Below are positions 47,802-62,321 of a DNA stretch of 64,000 bases, piece by piece. Position 1 is the stretch's first letter. Every line of letters begins with the position of its first letter. The notes below the pieces were generated by a model, which searched no databases, was not told where the DNA came from, and worked only from the letters and a program-made list of their open reading frames with translations. The DNA comes from Campylobacterales bacterium (GTDB taxonomy: Bacteria > Campylobacterota > Campylobacteria > Campylobacterales > QNZT01): contig JAJRSK010000045.1 in the NCBI GenBank assembly GCA_024278835.1, positions 3,444 to 67,443 of the forward strand. Direction: 5' to 3'. The position numbers were made by a program, and so were the translations under genes.

Positions 47802-48457
47802 TACGAAAACATCTGAAAAACAACAGCTTACACCTGCATAAGTCAGAACAATTAGCCCAAGAGATAAACAGAGTTTTTCCACTCTCACCTCTCGTTATCG
47901 AAGCTATCGGGAAGACTGAACGAGAACTTTTTGTACCACAAGGATTCAAACACCACGCATACAAACTAGATGCCCTACCTCTTTCAGCAAACCAGTGGAT
48001 AAGTTCTCCCTTAACCGTCGCAAAAATGACAGAAGCACTCTCTCCAGAAGGGGCTGATTCTGTTCTTGAGATAGGTTGCGGATCTGGTTATCAAGCGGCC
48101 GTTTTAAGCCAACTCTTTCGTCGTGTTTTTACGATAGAACGTATTGAGAAACTGCTTATCGAAGCCAAAGGAAGATTTTCACAACTCAAACTAAACAACA
48201 TCAACACACGTTTTGATGATGGTAACAAAGGTTGGAAATCCTACGCACCCTATGATAGAATCCTCTTTTCAGCCTCCGCGCCAAAGCCACCGATGCACCT
48301 TTTTGAGCAACTCAAAGAGGGTGGGATTTTAGTCACACCTATCACCCACGGCAGCAAACAAATCATCACAAGATTTATCAAAAAAGGTGGACAAATCACA
48401 CAAGAACAGTTAGATGAGTGTCTTTTTGTGCCTGTGCTTGAAGGTGTACAAAAGTAA
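47798..48457 (+). CDS. pcm: Protein-L-isoaspartate O-methyltransferase
   Basis: SAM motif VLEIGCGSGYQAAVL, plus ISSPLTVAKM. Confidence 0.9.
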   Translation: MIRKHLKNNSLHLHKSEQLAQEINRVFPLSPLVIEAIGKTERELFVPQGFKHHAYKLDALPLSANQWISSPLTVAKMTEALSPEGADSVLEIGCGSGYQAAVLSQLFRRVFTIERIEKLLIEAKGRFSQLKLNNINTRFDDGNKGWKSYAPYDRILFSASAPKPPMHLFEQLKEGGILVTPITHGSKQIITRFIKKGGQITQEQLDECLFVPVLEGVQK

Positions 48458-48458
48458 A

Positions 48459-48803
48459 CTAGTTAGCATCATGACAATGATGTTCTATACCCTCTTTGTA
48501 CCCTTCTAGTACCTCTTTAGCACGAATCCCCTTTTGATAAATCTTTAAAATTTCCCTGGTAAAGTTGATAGGATACTCCGTAAAATGCCCACAATCTTCT
48601 TTATAATATCGCTCTAATGTAACATACATCTCTTCTAAGATTTCAGGATCTTCTTTTTTTAGCCTATTCAAATCTTCTTGGGCTTGTAAAAGTGTCTGGT
48701 CATTAAACTCTCCACGATCATCTATCGTTTTTCTTAATTCCACATACTCTTTAAGACTTTTTCTATTTCTAATAAAATCTGCAAATATTTCAATCAATAT
48801 CAT
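48459..48803 (-). CDS. Hypothetical protein (114 aa)
   Basis: ORF with its start ATG inside a palindrome copy. No family recognised. Confidence 0.45.
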   Translation of the reverse strand: MILIEIFADFIRNRKSLKEYVELRKTIDDRGEFNDQTLLQAQEDLNRLKKEDPEILEEMYVTLERYYKEDCGHFTEYPINFTREILKIYQKGIRAKEVLEGYKEGIEHHCHDAN

Positions 48804-48857
48804 GATAACTCCTTATTTTTATAAAGAAGTATGAAGCCCCACAAAGAGGCTTCATAC

Positions 48858-50801
48858 TTAAAGTACACAAGTTTGAATCTTTTGTACGATACTAGGGTCT
48901 TCTAACGTAGAAATATCTTGGGTTATTGGCTCACCTTTGGCGATGGATCTTAGTATCCTACGCATAATCTTACCAGATCTAGTTTTTGGAAGATCCGGCA
49001 CAAACTTGATATCATCACACTTAGCGATAGCACCAATCTCTGCTAAAATGACTTTGTTAATCTCTTGCACCATCTCCATCTCTTCAACCATCGTATCTTC
49101 TGATTTTAACACGACATAGGCAAAGATACCCTCACCTTTGATTTCATGAGGCTTACCAACGACTGCTACTGCCGCCACACCTGCATGTTTCTTGATAGCT
49201 GCTTCTACTTCTGCCGTACCCATTCTATGCCCTGAAACGTTAATGACATCATCCGTACGCCCTGTGATAGTGATGTATCCATCTTCATCTATCATCGCAC
49301 CATCTCCGGTAAAATAAACTGGCTCACCATCTTTTTTACAATCTCCAAAATAAGACTTCACAAATCTATCAGGGTCACCCCAAATCGTTCGTATCATACT
49401 TGGCCAAGGCTTGGTAATACACATAAAGCCTTTTTCCCCTACTGGTGTTGCTGTGCCATCCTCTTCAATCACTTCAGCCATGATACCAGGTAGTGGGAAT
49501 GTTGCACAACCTGGCTTGATAGGTGTCGCAGCAGGAAGTGGAGAAATCATATGTCCACCCGTCTCTGTTTGCCAGTAAGTATCTACAATAGCACATTTAC
49601 TACCACCAATCGCCTCGTAGTACCATTTCCACGCGGCAGGATCGATAGGTTCACCCACAGTTCCTAGTGTTCTTAAGCTGCTAAGGTCATATTTTCCTGG
49701 TTCATCTTCACCCATCTTATGCAATAGTCTGATAGCTGTAGGCGCGGTATAAAACTGATTGATTTGATATTCTTCAACCATTCTCCAACAACGACCTGCA
49801 TCTGGAAAAGTTGGCACACCCTCAAACATCACCGTCGTCGCACCCATCGCGAGAGGTCCATACACGATATACGTATGCCCAGTAATCCAACCAACATCTG
49901 CCGTACACCAGTAAGTATCATTTTCTCTCACATCAAATACCCACTCCATCGTCATCTGGGCCCAAAGAATATACCCTGTAGAACTATGTTGTACCCCTTT
50001 TGGTTTACCTGTACTACCTGAAGTATAGAGTAAAAAGAGTGGATCTTCGCTATCCATCGGCTCCGCTTCACACTTACTTGATTCATTTTTCACAAGCTCG
50101 TTGTAGCTGTAGTCTCTTCCTTCTACCCAAGTGATGTCTTCACCATTTCGCTCCACGATACAGACATTTTTCACACATTCACATCCTGATTCTAGTGCTT
50201 TATCTACCACAGGTTTCAACATATAAGGTTTCCCTTTTCTATATGCACCATCTGCTGTTACGACAAGTTTTGCCTCAGCATCGATGATTCTATCTCTTAA
50301 AGCTTCTGCTGAAAATCCACCAAAGACGATAGAATGAATCGCTCCTATTTTGGCACAGGCTAGCATCGTTACTGCTGCCTCTGGAATCATAGGCATATAA
50401 AGGACAACCCTATCACCTTTTTTGATATCAAATTGATTTTTAAACATATTGGCTGTTTGATTTACTTTGTAACTGAGTTCTCGATAAGTGATAACTTGTT
50501 GGTCGCCATTATCCCCTTCAAAGATAATGGCTGCTTTGTTTTTTCTCGTAGCCAAGTGTCTATCCACACACTGGTGTGCAACATTCATCTTACCATCAAT
50601 AAACCACTTGTAAAATGGCGCTGCACTCTCATCTAAAACTTGCGTAAATGGTGAAAACCAATCAATCTTTTCATTGGCATAATCACCCCAAAACCCTTCA
50701 TAATCCTCATTTGACTTATTCATCAAAGCGTAGTATTCATCCATACTTTTTATACGTGCATCTTTTGAATGTGCTGCATTTGGTTGAAATATCTGTTTCA
50801 T
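48858..50801 (-). CDS. acs: Acetyl-CoA synthetase (AMP-forming)
   Basis: 647 aa with [20 protein letters not shown] and the C-terminal [14 protein letters not shown]. Confidence 0.97.
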
Positions 50802-50844
50802 TATCGTCTCCTTATTTTATTGTATTGATATTGACAAAATTAAA

Positions 50845-51456
50845 TTATCTTTTTTGGGGATAACTTAACTTTATAAAAATCATCGCTGTCATAACCGCAT
50901 CATTGAGCGCATCATGTTTAGCCATAAACGGTAAATTCAAATCTTCCATAATCGTGTTAAAACGCAAGTCTATATGCCCTTGTGGAATACGCTGAATCTT
51001 CTTATCATGATAGATAGCTGAAACTTCATATTGTTTGTTTGGCAAGTTTATACCGATACGGGGCTTGATGTATTTGTTCACCATCGCCATATCAAACTCC
51101 AGATAATACCCCACCAAAGGAGATGACCCGATAAAGGCTAAAAAATCTTTTATTACATCATCGATATCTTCCCCATGCGCCAAATCACAAGTTCTAATTT
51201 GATGGATTTGGATACTTGTTGCGTCTAATTTTTTTTCTGGCTTGACAAAGCGTTCAAACTTTTGACTCATCAAAATCTTATTCTCTTTAATCTTCACAGC
51301 ACCGATAGAGATGATATCATCTACTTTTGGATCTAGCCCCGTCGTTTCACAGTCAAAACAGACATACTCACCTGCAATAGGTGCATCAAAAAGATAAGCA
51401 TAGGCTTCATCTTTTAAGTTTTTCCTCGCAAAATGTCTTTTTATCTTCTCAAACAT
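50845..51456 (-). CDS. DEDDh 3'-5' exonuclease (DnaQ/epsilon-like)
   Basis: ExoI FDCETTGLDP and ExoIII HDALNDAVMTA. Confidence 0.85.
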   Translation of the reverse strand: MFEKIKRHFARKNLKDEAYAYLFDAPIAGEYVCFDCETTGLDPKVDDIISIGAVKIKENKILMSQKFERFVKPEKKLDATSIQIHQIRTCDLAHGEDIDDVIKDFLAFIGSSPLVGYYLEFDMAMVNKYIKPRIGINLPNKQYEVSAIYHDKKIQRIPQGHIDLRFNTIMEDLNLPFMAKHDALNDAVMTAMIFIKLSYPQKR

Positions 51457-51462
51457 CTCAGG

Positions 51463-53361
51463 CTACCCCAACATGTTCAATTTATAGTGAAAAGTAAGAA
51501 ACTTTTTAAATTGGTTAACGATTTTAAAACTATCTTTCAGTAAATCTTTCTCTAATTTGGTAAGTTTTGTAGGTTTGATATAGTTATCTGGCGTACTATT
51601 CTTATCGATTTTTTCAAGATTATACTTCAGACGAAGAGAGAGTAAAAAAGTATATGACTCTATCAAATCACCTGCCAATTCTCTATCTATCACCCCTAAA
51701 TCATTGAGTTTTTTCAACCTTTCAATGGTATTTGTCACTGTTATATGGTGTTCAAGACTTAAGCTTCTCACCCCATGTACGATAGGAAAAATAGCACCTT
51801 TTTTGATATCAAGTTCTTCTTTGTGTCCTTCTTTACTCAGTACAAAACCTGAAAAGACACTTAATGGCGTCTCAAAACTGAGTACAGCTTTTGAAAAATG
51901 AGCATAAAACGCCCCTGAATTTTCTATCTTCTTAAGAAGATAGTTTTTGAGATTTTCTAACAAGCGTTTATCCCCAGCAACAACCAAAGCATCAAAAAAG
52001 ATAGCAATATTCATAAAATTATCACCACTCTTATTGTCAATCCATGAAAAAATCACCTTTTTAAAATCACTCTCTTTATGTACCCACACAGGATTACTTA
52101 TCATGATATTTCCAGGGCATGGAGGATAACCAAAACTTACAAGTTTCTCTGTAAATGCTTTGGTAAATTCTGCAAGTTCCACATCAGCAATGCTACAATC
52201 ATCACTTAAGATAAGAGCATTGTCTTGATCTGTTTTTAAAATCTGCTCTTGTCTGCCTTCACTTCCCATCACGATAAGTGCAGAGTGTTCTAACAAAGAT
52301 TTAGGTGCCGTTAACTCAAAAAGTTTTTTAAAGACCTTTTCATTTAACTGACTTAAAAGTTTCGAGATATAACGCACTTTTACCCCCTTGGCATAAAGGG
52401 ATTTGGTGATGCGTATGAGGTTTGTACTTGCACTTTGCAAGGCTTCGACACTCTCTGCTCTTTCTATCTCATTGGATATCGAATAGGTATGTGAAGCGAA
52501 AAAACTTACCAAAGATATCTGATCCAAGATACCCACGACCTGCGCTTTTTCATCCTCTACCACCAATCTTTTGATACCATGCTTTGTCATCTCAAGTTGG
52601 GCGTTAAATAAAAACTCATTCTTGTTGACCACTATCAAATCAAACTTTGCTAACCTTTCTATCGGTGCATCAAAAGACATCTTTTTCAAGATAAATTTTT
52701 CACGAAAATCCACATCCGTCACTATGCCTAAAGCCTCTCCTTTTTGCACCAAAAGAGAGTTTGCTTTTTGTTCTTTTTGATACTGCACCGCTTCAAAGAT
52801 AGACATAGTCGCATCCACAATAACTGGCGCTTGGATATAAGCATCTTTTACACGGGCAACCATAAAGTTTGCTAACTCTTTATTTTTCTTATTGACTTGA
52901 TTGGTATTTAGTTTTTGTGCAAGAGTTTGAAAAAAATACTGTTCAAAGTTCTCATCTTCATGTAAAACTTTCAAAAATATTTCTCTTGGTAAGAGATAAC
53001 AAATAGTCTCTTGGGCTGTTATAAAAAGGTGTTTGACACGATTTTCAATCAAAGAGATAGGATCAAAAAGTTCATGGTGACCATACACAGAAATCACCTC
53101 ATCATCCTCTTTTTCATGCACTGTACCTTTGATGATAAAGTAGAGATATTCTGCCTGTGAACCTTTGGATAAAAGTGTTTCATCTTCTGTAAAATAGACA
53201 ATGTCTAAATTTTCACATACAAACTTTAGATTATTATGACTCAATGTATCAAAGGGCGCTATCCCTTTGATAAAAGATTCTTGTTCAAGTAAACTCAAAC
53301 TATCACCCTTATTTACTATTTTTTTATGTGGATGCAAACAGGGGATAATCCTTGCTTGCAA
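51463..53361 (-). CDS. Multidomain signalling protein: cNMP-binding + CBS pair + DUF294-type nucleotidyltransferase
   Basis: N-terminal cNMP barrel (YLYFIIKGTVHE), CBS region, and a GSEGRQEQILKTDQDNALI nucleotidyltransferase motif (GS...DxD). Confidence 0.75.
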   Translation of the reverse strand: MQARIIPCLHPHKKIVNKGDSLSLLEQESFIKGIAPFDTLSHNNLKFVCENLDIVYFTEDETLLSKGSQAEYLYFIIKGTVHEKEDDEVISVYGHHELFDPISLIENRVKHLFITAQETICYLLPREIFLKVLHEDENFEQYFFQTLAQKLNTNQVNKKNKELANFMVARVKDAYIQAPVIVDATMSIFEAVQYQKEQKANSLLVQKGEALGIVTDVDFREKFILKKMSFDAPIERLAKFDLIVVNKNEFLFNAQLEMTKHGIKRLVVEDEKAQVVGILDQISLVSFFASHTYSISNEIERAESVEALQSASTNLIRITKSLYAKGVKVRYISKLLSQLNEKVFKKLFELTAPKSLLEHSALIVMGSEGRQEQILKTDQDNALILSDDCSIADVELAEFTKAFTEKLVSFGYPPCPGNIMISNPVWVHKESDFKKVIFSWIDNKSGDNFMNIAIFFDALVVAGDKRLLENLKNYLLKKIENSGAFYAHFSKAVLSFETPLSVFSGFVLSKEGHKEELDIKKGAIFPIVHGVRSLSLEHHITVTNTIERLKKLNDLGVIDRELAGDLIESYTFLLSLRLKYNLEKIDKNSTPDNYIKPTKLTKLEKDLLKDSFKIVNQFKKFLTFHYKLNMLG

Positions 53362-53370
53362 ACGCCGTCT

Positions 53371-55023
53371 CTAGTGCTCAGATGCACCCTCTGCACCGAT
53401 ACCAGTTTGTGCTCTGATATTTTGTGCTTCAAAAGCATCTCTCTCTTTTTGTGCTTGTTCACTATTATCTGTAATTGAAAAGAACCAAATACCGACAAAG
53501 GCTACTGTCACAGAAAAGAGTGCTGGATATTTATAAGGAAAGATTGCTTCTGCATTTCCTAAAATCTGTACCCATACAATCGGACCTAAAATAACAAGTA
53601 AAATCGCTGTTGCAAGTCCTAATGTTCCACCTATGACCGCACCTCGTGTAGTGAGCTTTTTCCAATAGATAGACAGAAAAAGGATAGGGAAGTTAGCCGA
53701 TGCTGCGATAGCAAATGCCAAACCAACCATAAACGCGATATTTTGCTTCTCAAATAAGATACCCAAGATGATAGCGATGATACCTAATACAACTGTTGCT
53801 ATCTTGGACACACGCATCTCTTTTTGCTCATCCACTTTGCCCACAGCGAAAGCGTTGGCATATAAATCATGAGAAATCGCAGAAGCACCAGCCAATGTAA
53901 GACCAGAAACAACCGCTAAGATTGTCGCAAATGCCACCGCTGAGATAAATCCAAGGAACAAATCACCACCAACCGCGTGAGAAAGATGAATCGCAGCCAT
54001 GTTGTTACCACCAAATAGTGTCCCTTTAGCCACATCCAAATACTCTGGATTTTGTGAAACAAGAACGATAGCACCAAAACCGATGATAAACGTAAGGATA
54101 TAAAAATACCCGATAAAGCCCGTTGCAAAGAATACTGATTTTCTAGCTTCTTTCGCATCTGCCACTGTAAAGAAACGCATCAAGATATGAGGAAGACCCG
54201 CCGTACCAAACATCAAAGCAATACCTAGTGAAATAGCCGATATAGGATCAGAGACCAATCCACCTGGGCTCATGATAGCGATACCACTTTTATGTACTTC
54301 TGTTGCTCCTTTAAAGAGTGCTTCAAAAGAGAATCCAAAGTGACTCATCACCGCAATTGCCATGAACGTCGCACCAGAGAGTAAAAGTACTGCTTTGATG
54401 ATTTGTACCCATGTTGTTGCAAGCATACCACCAAAGGTCACATAGGCAATCATCAGTAAACCAACCAAGATAACAGCCGCTTCATAAGGGAGACCAAAAA
54501 GCACTTGAATCAGCTTTCCAGAACCAACCATCTGTGCAATAAGATACAAAATAACCGTAGCAATTGAACCAAATGCCGCTAAGATTCTAATAGGCTTTTG
54601 TCTGAGGCGATATGAGGCTACATCGGCAAAAGTATACTTACCCAGGTTTCTCAATTGCTCTGCAATCATAAATAGTATGATAGGCCAGCCAACTAAAAAT
54701 CCGATAGAGTAGATAAGTCCATCATACCCTTTAAGATAAACCAATCCAGAAATACCCAAGAATGACGCCGCTGACATATAATCACCCGCTATTGCCATAC
54801 CATTTTGAAGTCCTGTGATACCACCACCAGCCGTATAAAAATCCTTGGCTGTTTTTGTTCTTTTTGCTGCCCAGTAAGTGATACCTAGTGTCGCGCCTAC
54901 AAAGATTAAAAACATGATTACCGCAGGAACATTTAAATCTCTCTGACCTGATACTCCAGCATCACCACCCGTTGCAAATAGTGATACACTTAAAAGCGTT
55001 AATAATACGATAACTTTTTTCAT
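53371..55023 (-). CDS. actP: Cation/acetate symporter (SSS family)
   Basis: 550 aa and about 13-14 TM helices. Signature of sodium:solute symporters. Preceded by a DUF485 gene with 4-nt overlap, as in yjcH-actP operons. Confidence 0.88.
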
Positions 55024-55337
55024 GCTCCTATCTCCTCTTTTAATTCTTCTTTGACTTTATTGGTTAAATCATCAAATTCACCATTAGCCCGTCTTGTATA
55101 AAGCCCTGCCATGATAAAGGAAAAGAAAATGATAAATATTCCTACAGGAATCCCTATCGTCATCACACCACCCATACTCGTACCTAAAACCTGAGGTGCA
55201 AATGCAATCGTCAAAATAAAGGCGTAATAAACTACCAACATGGCGATTGTCATCTTCCACGCATAGGCACTTCTCGTCTTAACCAACTCTTTATAAGAGG
55301 GGTTATTTTTAATCTTTTCTACAAGATTCTTATCCAT
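55020..55337 (-). CDS. DUF485 (YjcH-like) small inner-membrane protein
   Basis: 105 aa, two TM helices. Conserved partner of actP. Confidence 0.8.
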
Positions 55338-55346
55338 TGTTTCTCC

Positions 55347-56681
55347 TTAAAAATTATAATTTGCTATCACTCTATACTCGTTCCAGTCTAATCCTGGTGC
55401 AAAATCTGTTGGATAATTTGCTCTGAGTCTTAAGTGTAAGTTTTTTACTGCTGCTGGATTATACTTGATATCAAATCCACTCTCTTTTGCTGTCCAAGCA
55501 TTACCTGCTTTATAAGTGTTGTTCGCCCCAATGTCAAATGATATATGATAGATTGATGCTTTTAAGTCCACCCCTAAAGCTTTTTTAAAGTTGTATGTTC
55601 CCGCCACCTTTACGGTATCCGTATCAGCAAAAAACATATGTCTTGTTACCATACCCTGCGTAAATGCTGGTATGCCACCCCATGGTGTGATGATACCACC
55701 ATGGGCTTGTGCATCGACATTTGAATCTGTTGTAGAGTAAGCCACATAGCCACTAAGTGCACCAAATCCAGCCCCTAGTTTCACACCGATAAAATTGCTA
55801 TCCACATCACCCGCTAGTTTATCTCCGATATCACTTTCATTGATGTACTGTGCAGAAGCCTTAAGCTTTAACGCATCACTCACTTTAAATGAATAATCAC
55901 CTTGTAGGTATATTGCGTTTAAAATATCATGTGCCACGTAGTCCCAAGCTTGTAATTTCAAGCCTTCTATACCACTATAGATAGCTGCTACAGCAGTCAC
56001 ACCAGGAGTATCTACCCCTGCGCCTAGTGCTATTTCACCCATCTCTCTAAATTCACCATTTGTGCCTAGCTTATATCCCAGACCATAACCACTTTGTAAA
56101 GAGAGTTGACCCGCAGCACCATAAACATTTCCAAAAGTTCCTACAGACTCTCTCACAACATGTGCTGCTATCAATGTGGTATCGACGATATCAGTATTGA
56201 CCAGTACTGCTGCTTCAAAAAGGTTTGGAAGCATTCTTGCATCATCTGCTGCTGCTAGTGGTGTATTTAACTTTTGACGACCAATTGTTATCGTCGTATT
56301 GGTAAGACCTGTTTCACAAAAACAGTATTTTAAGTACGCTTCACCAAGCATAGAATAAGAGGAAAATCCATCCCCATACAGTGAAGGATCATAGTTTGCT
56401 GAAGTTCTTTCTCCATCATGGATATTGATACCATTGGTCGTATAAAACTTCAATCCAAAACTTAAGCCATGTAACGAATCTGTCTCTATACCCAGAGATC
56501 CGCCAATGGCTAGTGAATTACGATTGTTTTCAATAGCCCCACTATACGTTCTATCGATGTAAAAAGTTCTGATTTGCCCTGTTGTTTTAGCATTTTTAAA
56601 TGCTTCCTCTAAGTTATCTGCTGCCTGCATATTTAGCGTGGCTAAAAGTGCTACTGATAACGCTAGACCTAATTTCCTCAT
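55347..56681 (-). CDS. Outer-membrane porin, OprD-like family
   Basis: Signal peptide MRKLGLALSVALLATLNMQA, N-terminal AFKNAKTTGQIRTFYIDR, and beta-strand periodicity ending in NYNF. Confidence 0.72.
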   Translation of the reverse strand: MRKLGLALSVALLATLNMQAADNLEEAFKNAKTTGQIRTFYIDRTYSGAIENNRNSLAIGGSLGIETDSLHGLSFGLKFYTTNGINIHDGERTSANYDPSLYGDGFSSYSMLGEAYLKYCFCETGLTNTTITIGRQKLNTPLAAADDARMLPNLFEAAVLVNTDIVDTTLIAAHVVRESVGTFGNVYGAAGQLSLQSGYGLGYKLGTNGEFREMGEIALGAGVDTPGVTAVAAIYSGIEGLKLQAWDYVAHDILNAIYLQGDYSFKVSDALKLKASAQYINESDIGDKLAGDVDSNFIGVKLGAGFGALSGYVAYSTTDSNVDAQAHGGIITPWGGIPAFTQGMVTRHMFFADTDTVKVAGTYNFKKALGVDLKASIYHISFDIGANNTYKAGNAWTAKESGFDIKYNPAAVKNLHLRLRANYPTDFAPGLDWNEYRVIANYNF

Positions 56682-56796
56682 ATTTTAACTCCTTTTAAAT
56701 AAGATTAATTACCGTAAGAAATTTTAATAAGGCAGCGTAGCATTAGCATAGCAATTAAGAAAAACTTATAATAGTGCTATGATTTTAGAGAGAAGG

Positions 56797-56813
56797 TGTT
56801 ACTTTATGTAACA
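56797..56813. promoter_or_regulatory. Inverted repeat TGTTAC-N5-GTAACA between the response-regulator gene and the porin gene
   Basis: Read directly. About 116 nt upstream of the porin ATG and about 33 nt after the regulator stop. Confidence 0.2.
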
Positions 56814-56845
56814 TAATAGGTAAAAATTATTTTATTTATTTACTT

Positions 56846-57514
56846 TTATACTTTTATAAATCTTTCAACTTTATAGCCAACACCCTTGATATTTTCTATA
56901 AAGTCTTCTTTTAGCGAACGCCTCAGACGGCTTATCTCTGCTCTGATAGTCGCATTATCCACCGGTTCATGATTCCATACATAGCTTCTAAACTTATCAA
57001 AGCTCAAAACCATACCGATATTTTGGCATAACAACTCTAGTATCAAAATCTGCTTTTTAGTCAACATCTGTACCTTATCATGATAGTAAAGTGCTGATTC
57101 TGATTTTGCATAACTATAGTGGGCACTTAGCAACACATGTTGTCTATGCTGTCTCTCTATAAACTGTGCGATATTGTTGAGTCTGAGTCCTAGTTCTTTG
57201 AGATGAAAAGGCTTTTTAAGATAGTCACTCGCACCCAAGTCAAATGCCTTGGAGATATCTTCGATATCCACTAAGGCTGAGATAAAAATAGTGGGTGTCA
57301 AAATCTCTGACTCTCGTAAATATGCCAAAAGCTCAAAGCCATCTATATGCGGTACATTGATATCTAAAATCAAGATGTCATATAATGTTTCTTGCAAAGA
57401 TTCCAATGCCTTATCACCCCTAGAAAAACTTTTCACCGTATGACCTAAAGAGAGTAGATACTCTTCGATGGCACTCTGCAACATCAACTCATCTTCAAGT
57501 AATAAGATTTTCAT
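56846..57514 (-). CDS. OmpR-family response regulator
   Basis: Starts MKILLLEDELML. Receiver domain (DILILDINVPHIDG) and winged-helix output (GVGYKVE). The track extension to 57568 is rejected. Confidence 0.88.
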   Translation of the reverse strand: MKILLLEDELMLQSAIEEYLLSLGHTVKSFSRGDKALESLQETLYDILILDINVPHIDGFELLAYLRESEILTPTIFISALVDIEDISKAFDLGASDYLKKPFHLKELGLRLNNIAQFIERQHRQHVLLSAHYSYAKSESALYYHDKVQMLTKKQILILELLCQNIGMVLSFDKFRSYVWNHEPVDNATIRAEISRLRRSLKEDFIENIKGVGYKVERFIKV

Positions 57515-59108
57515 GATACTCCTTAAAATAGTATTGAAAACTATTTTGATTGTTAGCAGACTGTACATCCACTTTCACCGCATGCTTATCACAAATCTCT
57601 TTGACGATATGCAACCCTATCCCAAAACCACCACGGGCACTTCCCTCTCTATAATAACGCTTAAAGAGTTGTTCTGGGTCTTTGATAGCAGTACCCACGC
57701 TTGTCACTTCAAGTAACAACATCTCTTTGTCTCTTTTTAGTGTGATAAAAACCTCACTCTCTGGCAAAGAATATTTTATCGCATTGGAGATATTATTGTC
57801 ACAGATTCTTTGTAGTTCCACTTCACTAAAAAATAGTTTGAGATTTGGCGTGATATCATGTTCTAACACTATTTTATTACCCAGAGCCACTTCATCAAAA
57901 AAATTTATTCTCTATTGTAAAAAAAGAGAAAAATCTATCATAACTTTTTTATACTCCACACGATCTTTTTTTGTCATATAACTTAAATCATTATAGATAT
58001 TTTGTATGATTTTTACCCCCGCTTCAATCTTTGTTAAATAAGAGTTTTTAGGATTATTCATATTGTACAAGTCAACATTTGTCATGATAATGCTAAGTGG
58101 TGTATTTATCTCATGCGTGGCATTTTTGATAAACTTATCTTGTGCTATCACCATTGACTCTGCAAACTCTTTTGCATCATTTAACTTTTTAGTTTTCTCT
58201 TTTACCTTTTGTGCTAGATTAGCATTAAGATCTTCAAGGGACTCTTTCTGCAAGGCAATCTCTTCTATCATGATATTGATATGTTCTGCTATCTGTTGAT
58301 ACTCTTCATAACGAATCTCACTAACATCCAACTTTTCATACTTAGAGGAGACAGATTTTAAAACATTTTCTATATAAGAGATATCATCACTCACCGTGTA
58401 CGCAAAATATTTATATATCACCATAGCGATAAAAAAAAGTATCGTCGAGAGGGTTAAGATGCCTAGGATAAACTTTGATACCTTTTGTTTATGTTCAAAT
58501 TTTTTCTTTTCAATCGTTGCATACATATCATCTAAATAAAACCCCGTACCAACCATCCAGCGCCAAGGCTTGTACGAGGCGGCATAAGAGATTTTTGGGG
58601 CTAGTTTGTTGATAAGTGGCTTATTCCAAACATACTTAACAAAGCCACCCCCTTTTTCTTTCGAAGCATCTATCAACTCATAAATCACTTCTTTCCCATT
58701 GGGGTCTTTGATATGCAGCATCTCTTTGCCAGCATTTTTTTTCAAGATAGGATCGGCGATATTGATACCATCAAAGGTATAGATAAAAACATATCCCGTG
58801 CCACCCCTCTCATCACGCATCTGCTCAATAGCATCCACAATTTCTGATTGCAACTCTTTAAGCGACTTATTTTTACCATCTTTTTTATGTTTGTAGGCTA
58901 TATAACGAAGAGCTCGATTGGTCTCATTGCGAATCAAATCTTTTTGCGTTTGAATATACTTTTTTTCTATCTGTACTATCTCATTTTGGTGCTCTTTATT
59001 TAGGTTGTAGATACTATAAACTAGCACCAAGATAGTGAGCAACGCCACCAAGAGGATACTGAGTCCACTGGCTTGATTGATGCTCTGTTTTTGAAAAATT
59101 TTTTTCAA
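57495..59108 (-). pseudogene. Sensor histidine kinase (TM-sCache-TM-HisKA-HATPase) interrupted by one in-frame TAG
   Basis: ORFs 57912-59108 and 57495-57890 share a frame. The junction reads IDFSLFLQ-TAG-RINFFDEVALGNKIV. The H-box ATHEINTPLSII lies upstream and the N/G boxes (NAIKYS, GGFGIGLHIV) downstream of the stop. Confidence 0.85.
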
Positions 59109-60677
59109 TTTTTATGGAGTTCCTGCACCATCAGTTGGGGTGTAACATTGCCACGAAACTCATTTTTAGAGACTGTACATACTATATCAACATAATCACC
59201 CTGCTCTGCTTTATCTACAAAATTAAAATAAATAGCTTCCACACTTTTTTGTTCACTTAGCAACGTCATTTTGAGGTGATTGGCATCCATTCCTAAAAGT
59301 CTATCTGCACTTACCAAAGCATTTTTGAGTAAAAATTGTGGTTGGGGATTTTTCTGACCATAAGGCTCATATTTTTCAAGAATATGTAATAAATCAAAGT
59401 CTATTGCCTCCGCATCTATCTCCCCCAAAACATCACTTTTTTCTATAAAATCTTCTTCAGGGATAGAGGCAGCTGCTGTTTCAAGATTTGCTCTAAAAGT
59501 TTCTAAATTTTCAGGGGCTATCGCCATACCTGCAGCACCTTGATGTCCACCATATCCGATAAGTAGCTCCTTTTGTGCTGCGATAAGTTCTAGGATATGG
59601 ATACTACCCACACTTCTCGCACTCCCTTTTGCCTTACCACCTTCTAGTGATAGGACAATGGCAGGTTTCTTAAATCGTCTAGTGAGTCTCGCCGCCACGA
59701 TACCAATAACACCTTCATGCCACTCTTCACCCCAAGTAACGATGATTTTAGCTTCTTCATTGTGCGTTAAAACAGCCTTGTTAAAAAGGTCAAGCTCTAT
59801 CTCTTTACGTCTATTGTTTAACCCCACGATATACTCAAGGTGCATAAGCGCCTCTTCTTCCCCTTTGGCTGAAAGCATCTCAAAAGCCAAAGTGGCATCT
59901 TCTATACGCCCTGCTGAGTTGATGATGGGAGCTAACAGAAAAGAGATATCATCACTCTTAAAAGCAGATTTTTTAAAGTAGCGTTTAATGACAGAGAAAA
60001 TGACTCTTTTTTCTTGATTTATCATCTTGAATCCCGCACGAACCATCGCACGATTCATCCCCTTTAGCTCCATCATATCTGCAACGATAGCGATAGCCAA
60101 AGGTCTAAATATTTTCCTAGGTTGTACTCTATGCCTAAAGTCTCTTTGAGTGTAGCCACCAGCTACCATGCCACCTGCGCCCCACATATCTCAGGATAGG
60201 GAAAAGGACAATCCTCTTGCTTGGGATTGACGATGGCATAAGCATCAGGGATAGTCTCCGGCACCGTATGATGATCGGTGATGATTAAATCAATACCTCT
60301 TTGTTTGCAAACCTCAGCAGCTTGCAGAGCAGAGATACCATTGTCCACCGTGATGATTACATCTGCGTCTATGCGTTCTAGTAACTTTTCATTGATACCA
60401 TAACCATCACGAAAACGGTTAGGTATGATGAGGGTGATAGGGATACCGATATCTGTAAAAAACTCACTCATGATAGTAGAAGAAACCACACCATCTACAT
60501 CATAGTCACCCACCACGGTGATTTTTTCGTTATTGTGGATGGCTATCTTGATACGATCTGCCGCTTTTTGGATATCTTTGAGTTGTGAAGGTTTAGGTAT
60601 ATCTTTCAGTGTCGTACAAGTGTCCTCTGCAAATCGAGAAGATAAAATCTCCTCGATTTTTTCGCAGTTTAACTTGG
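59105..60677 (-). pseudogene. recJ: Single-stranded-DNA exonuclease RecJ, disrupted (no canonical start, in-frame TAG, 1-nt deletion)
   Basis: DHH motifs are present (GDYDVDG, TVDNG, ITDHH). The reading frame runs ...ICGAQVAW-TAG-LVATLKETLGIEYNLGKYLDL, then shifts by one base in a T-run to LAIAIVADMMELKGMNR. The N-terminal [15 protein letters not shown] has no ATG/GTG/TTG upstream before it enters pyrG. Confidence 0.8.

Positions 60678-62321
<1,644 letters not shown>

Follow-up and report, generated by a model that had tools for sequence, protein, structure and literature searches.

Why should a putative nucleotidyltransferase and a DnaQ-like exonuclease be encoded in the middle of an acetate-utilization gene cluster? 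The question is raised by a stretch of 64,000 nucleotides from a Campylobacterales bacterium (assembly GCA_024278835.1, contig JAJRSK010000045.1; the whole stretch is referred to here as the window), in which two such genes lie between actP and acs in a minus-strand cluster that we analyzed by open reading frame (ORF) listing and by family-model scans with curated score cut-offs. The first gene of the pair (51463-53298, minus strand) codes for a protein, most likely of 611 aa, with a cyclic-nucleotide-binding (CNB)-like domain, a CBS pair, a DUF294 domain, and a DUF294_C four-helix domain (Pfam cNMP_binding, CBS, DUF294, and DUF294_C, all above their cut-offs), and is the candidate 'writer' in the proposal discussed below. 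The second (50845-51456, minus strand) codes for a 203-aa DEDDh (DnaQ-like) 3'-5' exonuclease of the PRK09145 family (281 bits for NF006601, whose cut-off is 189; RNase_T is also matched), and is the candidate 'eraser'. We find that the two genes travel as a strict pair, and that their neighbors across genomes are sodium/solute-type (SSF) symporter genes more than acs. We tentatively favor the reading that nucleotidylation by a sensor-gated writer, reversed hydrolytically by an eraser, controls the co-encoded symporter, as a split GlnD-like switch would, and give this reading somewhat less than an even chance.

Pairing and genomic linkage

The distribution of the pair was determined in two samples, each evenly drawn, of 301 Campylobacterota and 401 Pseudomonadota genomes. 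DUF294_C is present in 58 of the Campylobacterota genomes, and the identical 58 have an above-cut-off match to the PRK09145 exonuclease; each of the 67 exonuclease matches follows a DUF294_C match on its own strand at a distance of 11 to 148 bp (median, 24 bp), and two of the 69 DUF294_C matches are without an exonuclease. Among the Pseudomonadota, the exonuclease is present in 24 genomes, every one of which also carries DUF294_C, and 24 of its 25 copies adjoin a DUF294 gene, with the 25th at the end of a 5.4-kb contig. DUF294_C is commoner than the PRK09145 exonuclease in this sample (123/401 genomes), and a paralogous lineage pairs with PRK09146-like exonucleases: across 62 of the DUF294_C-carrying Pseudomonadota genomes, 24 of 24 such matches directly follow a DUF294_C match. 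Up to four DUF294-exonuclease pairs are present in a single sampled genome. From these counts we conclude that the two genes form an obligate module, of which several paralogous lineages exist.

An apparent DUF294-exonuclease fusion in one genome (locus L098, with open frames of 868 to 873 aa) was rejected because the two genes are in different frames, the long frames being an artifact of high G+C content. In Competibacteraceae, argS follows the DUF294 gene, and no exonuclease gene is present there. One Competibacter genome, in which the DUF294 gene is at a DUF485-actP locus, encodes a 767-aa protein (L113, 6273-8576) whose sole recognized domain is a C-terminal RNase_T, and the gene for this protein is divergent from a second DUF485(yjcH)-actP locus.

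A reading of the window made earlier from its letters alone (the sequence-only reading) had proposed that the pair is linked to both acs and actP, and named Vibrio as a distant case of the same linkage. Linkage is indeed conserved in distant bacteria, and the Vibrio case is borne out: one Vibrio-type locus (L088) has DUF294, exonuclease, and acs in the same order as the window, with a DUF294 protein ~91% identical to proteins labeled Vibrio europaeus. However, it is the SSF symporter rather than Acs that is the consistent neighbor. Some SSF symporter, either ActP-type or another ActP-related (VC_2705-like) protein, is encoded within 5 to 6 kb of the pair in 50 of the 58 pair-carrying Campylobacterota genomes (an ActP-type symporter within 5 kb in 43, and another SSF symporter within 6 kb in 17), whereas acs is within 5 kb of the pair in 30 of them and is missing from the genome altogether in 13. 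The Arcobacteraceae provide the clearest illustration, with four loci and others similar to them organized as DUF294-exonuclease, DUF485-actP, DUF485-actP, DUF294-exonuclease, and with no acs; the two tandem pairs are ~40% identical to each other, and acs is absent from 12 of the 15 Arcobacteraceae-like genomes sampled.

The Pseudomonadota pairs (n=25) are distributed similarly, with nine beside acs (seven of these in the window's order of DUF294, exonuclease, acs), nine beside DUF485-actP, and three near another SSF gene. A second type of module, represented by two loci, has the order DUF4212, VC_2705-type SSF symporter, DUF294, and PRK09146-like exonuclease. Together, these neighborhood counts link the pair to SSF carboxylate symporters more than to Acs. 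An above-cut-off ActP is encoded by 53 of the 58 pair-carrying Campylobacterota genomes, compared with 47 of the 243 pair-less ones, and these last, together with E. coli as a control genome, indicate that ActP does not require the pair. We note that 'one pair per transporter' was considered as a universal rule and rejected because of orphan paralogous pairs in Vibrio-like genomes (such as L155).

Predicted folds and a proposed switch

The sequence-only reading had the domains and the GS...DxD motif of the DUF294 protein right, and took its length to be 632 aa, which is the longest frame (extending to 53361). The most likely start is the TTG at 53298, both because close relatives begin MSLLEQ and because a ribosome-binding site, AAGGGTGA, precedes it, and this shortens the protein to 611 aa; residues 1 to 21 of the 632-aa ORF are disordered in the AlphaFold2 (AF2) model. 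The G-S-x(10)-D-x-D motif (G366, S367, D378, and D380) and a third acidic residue, D457, are invariant in 34 homologues sharing 26 to 49% identity with the window protein. The AF2 model has a mean predicted local distance difference test (pLDDT) score of 83 and a predicted template-modeling (pTM) score of 0.57, the latter because the arrangement of the domains is uncertain. Foldseek matches of the N-terminal half of the model are CNB and CBS structures, which are also the only domains recovered when the DUF294 protein is compared by sequence with solved structures. For the catalytic half, the DrrA AMPylase ranks first among the fold matches (6yx5_B; E 3.7e-9, target-normalized TM score 0.68 over 350 columns), and both halves of GlnE are also matched (3k7d, target-normalized TM 0.46-0.47; 1v4a, 0.44). 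In addition, the uridylyltransferase domain of E. coli GlnD (GlnD residues 43 to 125) gives a weak cross-match to PF03445 (DUF294), with 26.3 bits against a cut-off of 21.

The cyclic-nucleotide-binding role that had been assigned to the N-terminal domain fares less well. In a MAFFT alignment with a manually entered CRP sequence, the columns corresponding to the CRP phosphate-cassette residues E72 and R82 contain Glu in 0 of 70 sequences and Arg in 7 of 70, and the window protein has P and H at these positions. Sensing of cyclic nucleotides is therefore doubtful, because the CNB-like domain is without the Glu and Arg with which CRP contacts cAMP. The models are nonetheless consistent with a sensor-gated nucleotidyltransferase, in which a CBS pair and a degenerate CNB-fold sensor would govern a catalytic part of the GlnD/GlnE/DrrA type; this assignment is a component of the writer/eraser reading as a whole, and we hold it equally tentatively.

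The partner was described previously as a stand-alone epsilon-like 3'-5' exonuclease, and this description stands. Its DEDDh residues (D35, E37, D122, H181, and D186, in D-x-E, D, and H-x4-D motifs) are intact and are kept in at least 90% of 27 family members, and it has a family-specific N-terminal LKD..Y..LFD motif. The AF2 model (pLDDT 90) has a standard DnaQ-type (RNase-H-like) fold, with the DnaQ domain 8h2f as its best match (target-normalized TM 0.84, root-mean-square deviation 2.3); the nearest solved structures are DnaQ domains, Pol III epsilon, and the exonucleases of PolC and DinG. It nevertheless scores far under the epsilon-subunit models (TIGR01406, 56.7 bits against 222.7; NF004316, 60.6 bits against 196).

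The two genes are in the literature as PP_0354/PP_0353 in Pseudomonas putida, PA3233/PA3232 in Pseudomonas aeruginosa, and Pflu5625 in Pseudomonas fluorescens, and they rank with the strongest targets of MxtR/ErdR (CrbS/CrbR), an acetate-responsive two-component system (PMC5715377, PMC9927547, bioRxiv 10.64898/2026.09.07.749794). A literature search recovered no published biochemical function for the pair, so that the sequence-only reading, in which no function was known for it, was correct as to biochemistry, although the genes themselves had already been described; regulation by nucleotidylation had also been suggested for them by Sepulveda and Lupas. Deletion of either PP_0354 or PP_0353 leaves growth of P. 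putida on acetate unaffected, and acs is essential on acetate. The acetate phenotype that the sequence-only reading had set as its own test is thus not seen in the published deletions, which have moderate phenotypes on pyruvate or propionate instead. Specifically, the exonuclease mutant (ΔPP_0353) has a growth defect on pyruvate, which it shares with ΔactP-I and ΔyjcH but not with the transferase mutant (ΔPP_0354). Loss of the exonuclease hence mimics loss of the transporter, and loss of the transferase is silent on pyruvate, which is the pattern expected of a negative writer and a positive eraser. In P. aeruginosa, propionate co-induces PA3232-PA3235 ~16-fold. Price et al. reported that an RNase-T-domain gene is cofit with a DUF4212/SSF symporter in Shewanella amazonensis and Pseudomonas stutzeri, and speculated that it is needed for expression of the symporter.

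A plausible mechanism can be assembled from these components. The DUF294 transferase would, we infer, attach AMP or UMP to a component of carboxylate uptake, with the SSF symporter or its small subunit as the likeliest target, and the nucleotide mark would down-regulate uptake. The DEDDh 'exonuclease' would then hydrolyze the phosphodiester, free the 5'-nucleoside monophosphate (5'-NMP), and so restore activity. With the transferase and the removing enzyme as separate proteins, the system would be a split analogue of GlnD. The chemistry would seem to be compatible, in that a DEDDh enzyme should free 5'-NMP from a phosphodiester with either a ribose 3'-O or a protein hydroxyl as the leaving group. 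If correct, this would represent a new control on the uptake of acetate, pyruvate, and propionate, and a new activity for the DEDDh exonuclease superfamily. The most complete version of the proposal, in which the switch acts on the SSF symporter or its YjcH/DUF4212 subunit, the exonuclease is the first known DEDDh protein de-nucleotidylase, and the whole constitutes a post-translational layer across Campylobacterota and Pseudomonadota (and probably Actinomycetota and Deinococcota), is possible but doubtful.

Several observations weigh against the writer/eraser proposal. Growth on propionate is reduced in both ΔPP_0353 and ΔPP_0354, and the defect of the latter is not predicted by a simple negative-writer model. 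Orphan pairs with no symporter gene within ~5 kb are found, among them several paralogous pairs in Vibrio-like genomes, for example L155. A comparison of 65 pair-linked with 40 pair-less ActP proteins, and of 56 with 33 DUF485 proteins, identified no pair-specific Tyr, Ser, or Thr site, and the columns that do discriminate differ by conservative substitutions in step with phylogeny. A profile built from the catalytic half matches nothing among PDB sequences at E ≤ 10, and the relationship to GlnE and DrrA consequently consists of fold similarity and one weak Pfam cross-match. We know of no DEDDh enzyme that removes protein-linked nucleotides. At one locus in a Proteobacteria metagenome-assembled genome (L040, 9830-10387), the exonuclease has DCAATS in place of DCETTG, the H-x4-D motif is gone, and there is a 14-residue deletion; the gene still follows an intact DUF294 gene beside DUF485-actP, and is either decaying or encodes a non-catalytic partner. 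Finally, the nearest structures of the exonuclease are DNA proofreading enzymes, which favors a nucleic acid as its substrate.

This last consideration leads to the strongest competing explanation, which is that the DUF294 enzyme adds untemplated nucleotides to the 3' end of the symporter mRNA, a small RNA, or a tRNA, with the exonuclease trimming them, such that expression of the symporter operon is set post-transcriptionally. The 3' ends of nucleic acids are the substrates of all the nearest structural relatives of the exonuclease (DnaQ domains, Pol III epsilon, the PolC exonuclease, DinG, ExoI, and RNase T), a role in mRNA degradation was raised as a speculation by the authors of the P. putida study, and the Pol-beta-type superfamily includes poly(A) polymerases and CCA-adding enzymes. 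However, within the top 50 hits the fold matches of the catalytic half are protein AMPylases (DrrA and GlnE) and not RNA-specific transferases, and Rfam reveals no conserved RNA element in the cluster (no family matches positions 48000-60800 at E ≤ 0.1). Orphan pairs are awkward here too, as their distance from symporter genes would require an RNA target acting in trans. We consider RNA tailing and trimming to be unlikely on balance.

The same enzymes could instead form a second-messenger system, the DUF294 protein making a linear or cyclic oligonucleotide when its CBS and CNB sensors are occupied and the DEDDh enzyme degrading it (as oligoribonuclease does pGpG), with the signal gating carboxylate uptake. 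Strict pairing of a synthase with a hydrolase and the presence of sensor domains upstream of the transferase would both be accommodated, and some DEDDh enzymes, such as Orn, are specialized for dinucleotides. We regard this as decidedly unlikely, because in fold the catalytic half is nearer to GlnE and DrrA than to cGAS/DncV-type enzymes, the exonuclease is nearer to proofreading-type enzymes than to Orn, and no receptor candidate is evident in the conserved neighborhood.

It is less probable still that the pair modifies acetyl-CoA synthetase directly, in a manner akin to the reversible lysine acetylation of Acs. The arrangement in the window invites this interpretation, with acs directly downstream of the exonuclease gene, as does the presence of acs nearby in 30 of the pair-carrying Campylobacterota genomes and at seven Vibrio-type loci; a cNMP-gated Acs modifier in mycobacteria also offers a precedent. 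It is difficult to reconcile with the 13 pair-carrying genomes that have no acs, with the Arcobacteraceae-like genomes that keep two pairs flanking two actP copies, with the paralogous pairs that sit with a DUF4212/VC_2705 symporter, and with deletions that have no acetate phenotype even though acs is essential on acetate. A role in DNA metabolism, with the exonuclease a DnaQ paralogue for repair or proofreading whose operon position is meaningless, is suggested by the 'DNA polymerase III epsilon-like' label in many databases and by fold matches to DNA exonucleases, but is barely credible for a protein that scores so far under the epsilon models, is never without a DUF294 gene in the 702 sampled genomes, and belongs to an acetate-responsive regulon in Pseudomonas.

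The operon and its surroundings

The sequence-only reading listed eight genes, all on the minus strand, in the order Cache histidine kinase, OmpR-type regulator, OprD-like porin, DUF485, actP, DUF294, exonuclease, and acs, and our ORF listing and family scans agree with its gene order, gene calls, and coordinates, as well as with its domain calls as far as family matches are concerned. The region is an ordinary monocarboxylate (acetate, pyruvate, propionate) scavenging operon, with a porin, a YjcH/ActP symporter, and Acs. The porin gene (55347-56681, minus strand; 444 aa, PF03573, E 1e-18) is the initial gene of the putative operon, and its position is kept in seven relatives. It is followed by the gene for the DUF485/YjcH small membrane protein (55020-55337, minus strand; 105 aa, PF04341, 110 bits), which is upstream of actP and overlaps it by 4 nt. 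The actP product (53371-55023, minus strand) is a 550-aa SSF-family cation/acetate (monocarboxylate) symporter scoring 956 bits against a cut-off of 750 for NF006903. After actP come the DUF294 gene and, starting 6 nt past its stop codon, the exonuclease gene, and a 43-nt gap then separates the latter from acs (48858-50801, minus strand), the final gene of the putative operon, whose product is a 647-aa acetate--CoA ligase with ACAS_N, AMP-binding, and AMP-binding_C domains (975 bits for TIGR02188, whose cut-off is 725). With ActP and Acs over curated cut-offs and DUF485 encoded upstream of actP, the locus has the hallmarks of the ActP/YjcH/Acs acetate-scavenging module.

The sole long intergenic gap of the cluster is the 164-nt spacer between the regulator and porin genes (56682-56845, minus strand), and for this reason the genes from the porin through acs probably constitute a single operon; the spacer itself is a probable promoter/operator region. 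A scan for consensus promoters and terminators yielded nothing above the shuffled background.

The nearest homologues of the DUF294 protein are from uncultured Campylobacterales or 'Epsilonproteobacteria' genomes (72 to 85% identity), and those of the Arcobacteraceae are ~55% identical to it. The source genome is 2.5 Mb in 77 contigs, and it carries a second full-length acs outside the window (contig C65, 56475-58343; TIGR02188, 957 bits). Directly downstream of the window acs is a 114-aa ORF with no family match (48459-48803, minus strand), which is kept at the same place in a relative (L006, 4641-4985).

Upstream of the spacer are the genes of a two-component system. The OmpR-type response regulator (56846-57568, minus strand) has Response_reg and Trans_reg_C domains; its ORF is 240 aa, and the version in relatives is 222 aa. 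The kinase gene (57495-59108, minus strand) does encode the Cache sensor histidine kinase that the sequence-only reading described, with sCache_2 and HisKA domains in 57912-59108, but in the source genome it is split by an in-frame TAG (57912-57914) between HisKA and the HATPase_c domain, which is in the next ORF (57495-57890). A close relative, with a DUF294 protein 85% identical, reads GAG (Glu) at this position, so that the stop corresponds to a single G-to-T change, and the kinases of two relatives (L003 and L005) are intact at 531 to 532 aa. The Cache-kinase/OmpR-type system of this operon may therefore be inactive in the source genome. The window kinase contains sCache_2, HisKA, and, past the stop, HATPase_c; it contains no SSF domain, and does not have the combination of SLC5 symporter-like and STAC domains that characterizes CrbS, the kinase of the CrbS/CrbR system.

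Beyond the kinase is a pseudogene-like recJ (59105-60678, minus strand), which has no ATG, GTG, or TTG for its conserved N-terminus, an in-frame amber codon (TAG) after ...ICGAQVAW, and a frameshift ~20 codons further on; the recJ at this place in the closest relative (L005) is intact, with 470 aa. In another relative (L003, 3624-5726 and 14517-17714), which has a DUF294 protein 76% identical to that of the window, the cluster also includes a gene for a double-Cache chemoreceptor, placed between those for the kinase and the regulator, and acs is immediately followed by pta-ackA.

Comparison with known systems

In its DEDDh motifs and fold, the window exonuclease is the same as DNA polymerase III epsilon and PolC, but it falls under the epsilon cut-offs, is encoded with a nucleotidyltransferase and not with a polymerase, and has 203 aa compared with the 243 aa of the matched epsilon chain. 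Presumably it is without the polymerase-binding tail of epsilon.

For the DUF294 protein, the best structural match is the AMPylation domain of Legionella DrrA/SidM, with which sequence identity is 15%, so that the likeness is one of fold only; as a secreted effector, DrrA targets a host GTPase, and a PP2C-like enzyme serves as its eraser. With GlnD and GlnE the parallels extend to a Pol-beta-type transferase domain that contains G-S...D-x-D and has a helical substrate-binding domain after it and, by analogy, perhaps to a shared logic in which a ligand-sensing domain controls nucleotidylation and the mark is removed hydrolytically. The components would differ: sensing is assigned to a CBS pair and a CNB-like domain in the DUF294 protein and to ACT domains on the GlnD/GlnE side of the comparison, and removal, which is carried out by an HD domain in GlnD and by a second transferase domain in GlnE, is proposed here to be the task of a separate DEDDh protein.

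The DUF4212 and VC_2705 symporter clusters (Sama_1522-1525 and Psest_0346-0349) follow the same logic of a small membrane subunit, an SSF symporter, a DUF294 protein, and a DEDDh exonuclease. They differ in that the symporter, small subunit, and exonuclease are of other subfamilies and in that the reported substrates are lactate and D-alanine, not acetate.

The closest counterpart is PP_0354/PP_0353 of P. putida, in which the same cNMP-like, CBS pair, and DUF294 nucleotidyltransferase protein is followed by an RNase_T-type exonuclease in an operon, and which likewise belongs to a gene set for uptake of acetate and short-chain fatty acids together with actP, yjcH, and acs. The pair is one of the more widespread 'known unknowns' tied to short-chain fatty-acid uptake, and as one instance of it the window adds little to the question of what the module does. 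The organization differs, in that the window pair is inside one porin-yjcH-actP-pair-acs operon and the P. putida pair is a separate two-gene operon; three P. aeruginosa-like loci have the order DUF485, actP, DUF294, exonuclease. The regulators differ as well, with an sCache_2 kinase and an OmpR-type regulator in the window and the SLC5/STAC kinase CrbS with CrbR in the published Pseudomonas cases, and neither the nonsense codon in the kinase gene nor the Campylobacterales host has a parallel in those cases. In its gene content, the window is a typical member of a known module, one already published as an uncharacterized member of the Pseudomonas acetate-responsive regulon.

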